From Enterobacteria phage CUS-3, in sequence record FN394988.1: a stretch of 2,827 nt of DNA. One strand, 5' to 3'. Both the position numbers and the translations under genes were made by a program. Under the pieces are notes generated by a model, which made no database searches, had not been told where the DNA came from, and saw only the letters and a program-made list of their open reading frames with translations. This document shows, piece by piece, positions 2,180 through 2,827 of the stretch (its first letter is position 1; each line of letters starts with the position of its first letter).

Positions 2180-2827
2180 ATGTTGTTTTCCGTTGATGAT
2201 AATGGGTCAGGTAATGTTTTTGTATGTGGAGATCTTGTAAATAGCAAAGAGAATAAAGTTCAGTTCAATGGAAACAATAACAAACTTATTATAGAAGATG
2301 ATGTTGAGTGTCGATGGCTTACCGTAATATTTAGGGGTGATAATAATTACGTAAGAATACATAAAAACAGTAAGATTAAAGGTGATATTGTCGCAACAAA
2401 AGGTTCAAAAGTTATTATCGGTAGAAGAACGACAATAGGTGCAGGTTTTGAAGTCGTCACTGATAAGTGCAATGTTACAATTGGCCATGACTGCATGATA
2501 GCAAGAGATGTTATTTTGCGTGCATCAGATGGGCATCCTATATTTGATATTCATAGCAAAAAAAGGATTAATTGGGCAAAAGATATCATTATATCTAGTT
2601 ACGTATGGGTAGGGAGAAATGTCTCTATAATGAAAGGAGTATCTGTTGGAAGCGGATCTGTCATTGGGTATGGGAGTATTGTAACTAAAGATGTGCCATC
2701 TATGTGTGCAGCAGCCGGTAATCCAGCAAAAATAATAAAAAGAAATATAATATGGGCAAGAACGGATAAAGCGGAGCTAATTAGTGATGACAAGAGATGC
2801 TCCAGCTATCATGCGAAGCTCACGCAA
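2180..2827 (+). CDS. neuO: Hexapeptide-repeat (left-handed beta-helix) O-acetyltransferase, NeuO-like (polysialic acid O-acetyltransferase); 216 codons readable, no stop before window end, true 5' end may lie in the N run
   Basis: Frame +2 is open from ATG 2180 to 2827. Translation MLFSVDDNGSGNVFVCGDLV...IKGDIVATKGSKVIIGRRTTIGAGFEVVTDKCNVTIGHDCMIARDVILRASDGHPIFD...YVWVGRNVSIMKGVSVGSGSVIGYGSIVTKDVPSMCAAAGNPAKIIKRN shows repeated [LIV]-G-x-x-x-x hexapeptide units and the C-terminal GNPAKIIK signature of NodL/LacA/maltose-acetyltransferase-type enzymes. Position directly downstream of an endosialidase-like tailspike matches neuO in prophage CUS-3. Counting from Met 2180, residue 119 is His and 143 is Trp, which I recall (unverified) as the residues reported essential in NeuO. 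Region is clearly AT-rich. Confidence 0.7.
   Translation, partial: MLFSVDDNGSGNVFVCGDLVNSKENKVQFNGNNNKLIIEDDVECRWLTVIFRGDNNYVRIHKNSKIKGDIVATKGSKVIIGRRTTIGAGFEVVTDKCNVTIGHDCMIARDVILRASDGHPIFDIHSKKRINWAKDIIISSYVWVGRNVSIMKGVSVGSGSVIGYGSIVTKDVPSMCAAAGNPAKIIKRNIIWARTDKAELISDDKRCSSYHAKLTQ

Follow-up and report, generated by a model that had tools for sequence, protein, structure and literature searches.

The stretch of DNA analyzed here (the window, 2,827 nucleotides of Enterobacteria phage CUS-3, sequence record FN394988.1) is built of four sequenced pieces and three runs of N (Table 1). The pieces derive from the gene of the terminase small subunit, from the endosialidase tailspike gene siaK1 (two pieces) and from neuO. 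A megablast search with the last piece against the phage collection identified 18 sibling GenBank records (FN394218 and FN394986-FN395002, minus FN394988), all named Enterobacteria phage CUS-3 and each exactly 2827 bp long. In all 18 siblings the host is annotated as 'Escherichia coli ..., serovar:K1' and the region 2180-2827 as 'neuO: K1 capsule O-acetyltransferase', with DNA identity to the window of 99.2-100%. Record FN394218.1 is titled as the CUS-3 partial proviral terminase gene, siaK1 gene and neuO gene, genotype GT_1, from a host of serovar K1. Its CDS features (1-438, 539-1030, 1322-1762, and 2180-2827) have the same piece and N boundaries as the window, and only two bases (572 and 1379) differ between them. 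Other siblings gave 100% matches to single pieces of the window, and among the records listed none agreed with it in all pieces. The window is thus a member of the CUS-3 genotyping record series and a composite, not a contiguous stretch of the genome.

Table 1. Features of the 2,827-nt window of FN394988.1 and the basis of their assignment
Feature	Coordinates	Strand	Basis or remark
Terminase small subunit, 5′ part	1..438	+	FN394218.1 annotation; PHROG 309 'terminase small subunit', 2e-68
N run, 100	439-538	.	Arbitrary spacer; terminase and siaK1 lie far apart in the phage
siaK1 fragment, endosialidase beta-propeller (catalytic) domain	539..1030	+	Pfam End_beta_propel, 1.6e-104; exact match to CP000711 siaK1
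N run, 291	1031-1321	.	Length equals the true CUS-3 genomic distance
siaK1 fragment	1322..1762	+	Pfam End_tail_spike, 1.2e-32, and Peptidase_S74, 1.4e-11; annotated siaK1
N run, 417	1763..2179	.	Stands for the unsequenced siaK1 3′ end and the 153-nt siaK1-neuO intergenic region
neuO coding sequence, heptad-less '+0' form, 216 codons	2180..2827	+	Translation; 3JQY identity; sibling annotation
ATGTT, start codon and two nucleotides ahead of the VNTR insertion point	2180..2184	+	CP000711 ATGTT-(AAGACTC)19-GTTTTCC
His119 codon CAT, catalytic histidine (His147 in 3JQY)	2534..2536	+	Count from Met 2180; PMC3046976
Hexapeptide-repeat stretch, best-scoring (aa 136-170)	2585..2689	+	Pfam PF00132 Hexapep, E 4e-11, 42.5 bits vs. 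cut-off 27
Trp143 codon TGG, catalytically important (Trp171 in 3JQY)	2606..2608	+	Count from Met 2180; PMC3046976

The terminase fragment gave no Pfam or NCBIfam match at the thresholds used. The second siaK1 piece runs from the last part of the endosialidase catalytic/stalk domain into the first part of the C-terminal intramolecular chaperone domain. In the CUS-3 locus taken from the complete genome (CP000711, locus L002), the two siaK1 pieces map to positions 4222-4713 and 5005-5445. The lengths of the two later N runs (291 and 417) thus equal true genomic distances, the second being that from the end of the second siaK1 piece (L002 5445) to the neuO ATG (5863). If projected onto the window, the siaK1 stop codon would fall at ~2026, inside the 417-N run. 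Tail-fibre genes in further Escherichia phage records (vB_EcoP_ZX5, vB_EcoP-720R6, Phi05_2388 B, and Phi05_1999 B) share 99.3-99.5% DNA identity with this second siaK1 piece (1322-1762). Such near-identity of the stalk/chaperone piece in other phages indicates a probable recent exchange of endosialidase modules between phages.

The ORF that starts at Met 2180 is open to the window end, and its stop lies just outside (the codon after Q216 in CP000711 is TAA). A preliminary description of this DNA, made from its letters only, had assigned the ORF to left-handed beta-helix hexapeptide acetyltransferases and called it NeuO-like. The first assignment was confirmed by the Hexapep match (Table 1) and by a search against all PDB chains, while the second was borne out more strongly than it had been worded. 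Residues 3-216 of the product correspond to residues 31-244 of 3jqy_B, titled 'Polysialic acid O-acetyltransferase,' with 100% identity over 214 residues (E 3.4e-142, 474 bits). This chain, with which the product agrees in sequence, was crystallized as a left-handed beta-helix trimer. The next PDB matches were OatWY (2wlc, 3e-31) and LacA (8e-19), followed by enzymes of the Maa, Vat and CatB types. An alignment to NeuO and to LacA-family enzymes had been proposed as a check; it favors NeuO (3e-142), with LacA, Maa, Vat and WcaF types at least 100 orders of magnitude worse.

The preliminary description had also pointed to His119 and Trp143 (numbering from Met 2180) as essential residues. Both are present, and they are the residues reported to be catalytically important in NeuO, as His147 and Trp171 of the 3JQY construct correspond to His119 and Trp143 of the enzyme without heptad repeats (Schulz et al., 2011, PMC3046976). 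The offset of +28 residues in 3JQY comes from a construct with four engineered RLKTQDS heptads, plus a His tag (PMC3046976). The two numberings agree because it is the frame without heptads that the window displays. We found no evidence contradicting the identification, and the ORF is almost certainly NeuO itself, not merely a NeuO-like protein. Out-of-frame and minus-strand ORFs of 49-64 aa inside 2180-2827 were set aside, as all of them overlap this gene of established identity. The neuO product could not have been named from profile libraries alone. NCBIfam holds no NeuO-specific model and every match there remained below the curated cut-off, while PHROG 30105 matched the product at E 1.5e-156 and carries the label 'unknown function.' The G+C content of the neuO core is 36%, vs. 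42-47% in the terminase and endosialidase pieces, 44% in siaK1 and 48% in int. This low value is consistent with neuO being a foreign, horizontally acquired 'moron.'

The order of genes in the complete genome of CUS-3 (CP000711) is siaK1, 153 nt of intergenic DNA, neuO, int and attL; in locus L002 siaK1 ends at 5709 and the neuO ATG lies at 5863, with int and the attL core following. In strain UTI89 the order is tailspike, neuO, intS and tRNA-Arg. In the P22-like prophages of both CP000711 and UTI89, located at argW, neuO thus lies with the tailspike gene on one side and the integrase/att end on the other, as had been proposed when the gene was ascribed to the conversion slot between tailspike and attachment site. 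The further claim that it lies immediately downstream of the tailspike is correct for CP000711, with its 153-nt spacing; this neighborhood is not visible in the window itself, where 417 N stand between the two genes, and we infer the adjacency there from the reference genome and the matching N-run lengths. The DNA between siaK1 and neuO and the 3′ flank of neuO in CP000711 were scanned for promoters and terminators. Six promoter-like sites were found, a number within chance (4.9 ± 2.2 expected), and one hairpin resembling a terminator, on the minus strand past int.

Other surroundings of neuO were observed as well. In IAI39 (NC_011750.1 788115-790757) the gene lies outside argW, adjoining ybhB, and its neighbors are a tail-fibre gene in truncated form, a fragment of IS629 and an 84-nt remnant of a hypothetical gene at the usual place of intS. 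In ExPEC XM neuO is also located outside argW, with a different tyrosine recombinase following it, and several E. coli genomes contain 2-3 neuO matches. The annotation of the gene in public records varies. RefSeq describes phase-OFF alleles as a 111-aa 'acyltransferase' (WP_011478229.1) that begins at an internal Met, and not as a frameshifted or phase-variable gene; this was the case in UTI89 (L003 5311-5646) and in loci L006, L007, L009 (IAI39) and L010 (ExPEC XM). In phage phiv205-1 neuO is named 'general stress protein' (L011 1370-2146), and in CP000711 the repeat region is annotated with no neuO CDS (L002 5863-6646).

The reading of the gene as a capsule modifier had been tied in the preliminary description to a host with a K1 capsule cluster, and such a cluster was indeed present in carriers. 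The neuO core of UTI89 does not differ from that of the window, and in this strain the full K1 cluster adjoins tRNA-Phe and comprises kpsF/E/D/U/C/S, the alpha-2,8-polysialyltransferase gene (neuS), neuE/C/A/B/D and kpsT/M. Among 5426 complete E. coli genomes, neuS was detected in 329 and neuO in 161. The ratio of neuO to neuS genomes is about one half, close to the published figure of 43.5% of K1 genomes with neuO (PMC13001214). At least 21 of 25 neuO-positive genomes were neuS-positive too, the 25 being those among the neuO matches listed, compared with the 60 neuS matches listed. Together with the K1 serovar of the sibling hosts and the kps/neu cluster of UTI89, these data speak against a lack of the polysialic acid locus in carriers of neuO in general.

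The window differs from natural neuO loci in one respect, i.e., its 5′ end. The junction 2184|2185 reads ATGTT|GTTTTCC, with zero copies of AAGACTC. In the genome, a variable tract of these repeats (VNTR) is inserted two nucleotides past the start codon and was reported to contain 2-93 copies (PMC3046976). We examined 21 natural loci, 10 of them of the CUS-3 type from complete records (8-39 copies) and 11 from IMG/VR (8-32 copies). The general structure was ATGTT-(AAGACTC)n-GTTTTCC, with n = 8-39, and zero copies were found in none. The numbers of copies in the complete records were 8 (IAI39), 13 (IHE3034), 18 (phiv205-1), 19 (CUS-3/RS218), 20 (UTI89), 21 (MS7163), 28 (ExPEC XM), 30 (ATCC 11775), 34 (S88) and 39 (APEC O1), and the value for MS7163 agrees with the published one (PMC13001214). 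The tract is in frame in 8 of the 21 loci and not a multiple of three in the remaining 13; this is close to the published 34% of phase-ON loci among 64 complete genomes (PMC13001214). Met 2180 is the genuine start codon of neuO, and the junction 2184|2185 is not a natural one, since in genomes the VNTR stands there. The 18 siblings come from different strains, and in every one of them the junction is free of repeats and the total length identical. Among the matches listed for the 161 neuO-positive complete E. coli genomes, the full-length ones begin at query base 6, past ATGTT. A convention of the record series accounts best for the zero-repeat junction, the tract having probably been excised uniformly for genotyping; that the omission was deliberate we infer from the 18 identical junctions. 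As the record is devoid of the VNTR, the ON or OFF state of the source strain is not readable from the window.

According to published work, the length of the tract shifts at high frequency by slipped-strand mispairing, and the full-length enzyme is produced only with multiples of three repeats, where each three AAGACTC copies encode one RLKTQDS heptad and raise the catalytic efficiency (PMC3046976). NeuO without heptads was reported to be active, so that the VNTR is not needed for activity (PMC3046976). Two loci contain deviating sequences. In an IMG/VR locus (L021 3890-4000, IMGVR_UViG_2537562173_000011) we found an imperfect, in-frame tract of 15 units (AAGACTC three times, AAGCCTC, AAGACTC, AAGTCTC) with a 42-nt super-period, encoding alternating RLKTQDS and SLKTQVS heptads; such interrupted repeats might slip less often. 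In phiv205-1 (MN340231.1, L011 1370-1380) ATGTC, and not ATGTT, precedes the in-frame tract of 18 repeats, and the second codon therefore reads TCA (Ser), not TTA (Leu).

Three alternatives to the above reading were considered. One is that the ORF encodes a generic hexapeptide sugar or antibiotic acetyltransferase of the LacA, Maa, NodL, WcaF, WbbJ, Vat or CatB type, with no specific link to polysialic acid. Its fold and Hexapep repeats are indeed common, structures of LacA, Maa, Vat and CatB were found at E 1e-19 to 1e-8, and the best NCBIfam families were LacA (76.7 bits vs. a cut-off of 347), Maa (65.6 vs. 314), WbbJ (63.9 vs. 243), Vat (53.7 vs. 300) and WcaF (45.1 vs. 326). As these scores demonstrate, however, all the NCBIfam matches are far under the curated cut-offs, and the sibling GenBank records all annotate neuO. 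The full identity to NeuO at E 3e-142, i.e., to the 3JQY chain, refutes the generic reading, to which we assign practically no probability.

The two other alternatives accept that the gene is neuO and concern its allelic state. The sequence ATGTT|GTTTTCC could represent a natural allele from which the entire VNTR has disappeared, leaving the gene locked ON at the lowest catalytic efficiency. The window has no AAGACTC copy, heptad-less NeuO is active (PMC3046976), and VNTR-less homologues with a different N-terminus do occur in nature (L031 and L013, described below). Yet, the 18 siblings represent different K1 strains and genotypes and have the identical length of 2827 bp and the identical junction, natural copy numbers are 2-93 in the literature (PMC3046976) and 8-39 in the 21 loci examined, and no match crossing the junction was seen among those listed for the 161 complete genomes. 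We thus regard a natural '+0' allele as highly improbable; if it existed, it would be a counterpart of the engineered '+0' enzyme, deprived of phase variation. A frameshifted, phase-OFF neuO in the source strain, with no enzyme and no acetylation of the capsule at the time of sampling, is on the other hand somewhat probable, given that 13 of the 21 natural loci have repeat numbers that are not multiples of three and 65.6% of the 64 complete genomes are OFF (PMC13001214). This would, however, concern the state and not the identity of the gene; switching between the states takes place at high frequency (PMC3046976), and the repeat number is not carried by the window.

Our searches also revealed a NeuO homologue outside E. 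coli that has no VNTR. It shows 85-86% identity to NeuO at the protein and 76% at the DNA level, starts with GTG, has the N-terminus MAQ(D/E)VDKSF and contains no AAGACTC, while the equivalents of His119 and Trp143 are invariant. On the IMG/VR contig 3300011706_000037 (L031 828-4648) the gene immediately upstream of the homologue encodes an endosialidase tailspike that is complete but diverged: it matches CUS-3 SiaK1 at 69% identity over 865 aa and carries another N-terminal adaptor. Genes similar to umuDC, instead of int, come after the homologue. In an Atlantibacter sp. MAG (L013 3504-4648, NZ_DAMBQK010000002.1) it follows what remains of a degraded tailspike 3′ end, and the genes around look chromosomal. 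The homologue was not found in the 5426 complete E. coli genomes nor in the phage collection. These comparisons suggest that the endosialidase-neuO pair may be a mobile module and the phase-variable tract a peculiarity of the CUS-3 lineage.

The identity of the protein, its residues, the gene order, the VNTR and the K1 locus were established in the present analysis, while enzymology, phase switching and phenotypes are those published for the identical protein. On this basis, NeuO would transfer acetyl groups from acetyl-CoA to O7/O9 of sialic acid in the alpha-2,8 polysialic acid of the K1 capsule. The enzyme would function as a homotrimeric left-handed beta-helix, with acetyl-CoA bound in tunnels between the subunits (PMC3046976). 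His119 and Trp143 would be placed at the tunnel outlet, with a role of His119 in proton transfer (Schulz et al., PMC3046976), Arg137 would stabilize the oxyanion (PMC3046976), and a positively charged platform would bind polysialic acid chains of at least 14 residues (PMC3046976). O-acetylation with acetyl-CoA as donor and an acceptor of 14 or more residues is published (PMC3046976), and O-acetylation has been followed by mass spectrometry (PMC13001214). Located between siaK1 and integrase/attL at tRNA-Arg (argW), neuO would act as a lysogenic-conversion 'moron,' and its product would modify the receptor that is degraded by the tailspike of CUS-3 itself and by other K1 phages. Its expression would be phase-variable through slippage in the AAGACTC tract, the window showing the zero-heptad frame with the tract left out.

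Consequences for immunogenicity and phage susceptibility had been anticipated in the preliminary description, and both are documented. O-acetylation makes the capsule more immunogenic and increases resistance to neuraminidases and to desiccation (PMC3046976); it improves survival against lytic K1 phage and neutrophils, and makes the cells more sensitive to serum (PMC13001214). NeuO is a prophage-borne, phase-variable modifier of the K1 capsule, a major virulence factor of neonatal-meningitis, avian and uropathogenic E. coli. With its activity the immunogenicity changes and the bacteria better withstand sialidases, lytic K1 phages and neutrophils, but lose some of their resistance to serum (PMC3046976; PMC13001214). 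The gene, its structure, mechanism, regulation, distribution and phenotype were already known throughout, and the identification adds no new knowledge because all of this, including the crystal structure of the exact protein, has been published since 2005. Earlier studies of NeuO reportedly include those of Deszo et al. in 2005 and Bergfeld et al. in 2007. The case serves as a positive control, in which the gene, its slot and the catalytic residues were named correctly from the sequence alone. It also calls for caution, as gapped and edited records may hide a contingency repeat and suggest a contiguity that is absent from the data.

Of the known systems, the closest is NeuO of CUS-3 (3JQY), with which the window shares residues 3-216 without a difference, the same His119 and Trp143, the siaK1 and int neighbors and the K1 hosts. 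It is the representation alone that differs, since in the window the gene is devoid of the AAGACTC VNTR (the poly-psi domain) and of the stop codon, and is flanked by N. Among PDB chains, the closest enzyme distinct from NeuO is OatWY of Neisseria meningitidis W-135/Y (2WLC), also a left-handed beta-helix sialate O-acetyltransferase, in which the His and Trp equivalents are conserved. The active site of OatWY was described as highly conserved with that of NeuO (PMC3046976). Its alignment covers residues 25-208 at 111.5 bits (E 3e-31), vs. 474 bits for NeuO, and with many substitutions it is a distant rather than a close relative. In contrast to NeuO, it acts on Gal/Glc-Neu5Ac heteropolymers and not on alpha-2,8 polysialic acid, is encoded in the chromosome in association with the capsule locus, and has no heptad VNTR (PMC3046976). 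LacA and Maa share with NeuO the hexapeptide-repeat fold and the catalytic His at an equivalent position (E 8e-19 to 1e-15), yet only the C-terminal ~130 residues align, their acceptors are small sugars and they have no phage context. The likeness to gtrABC of phage P22 and oac of Sf6 is one of position and role, as these genes fill the same slot between tailspike and integrase/att, from which the prophage modifies a surface polysaccharide that serves as phage receptor. Their products are unrelated to NeuO, being a membrane glucosyltransferase system and an integral-membrane protein of the acyltransferase-3 family, respectively, and they target the O-antigen instead of the capsule.
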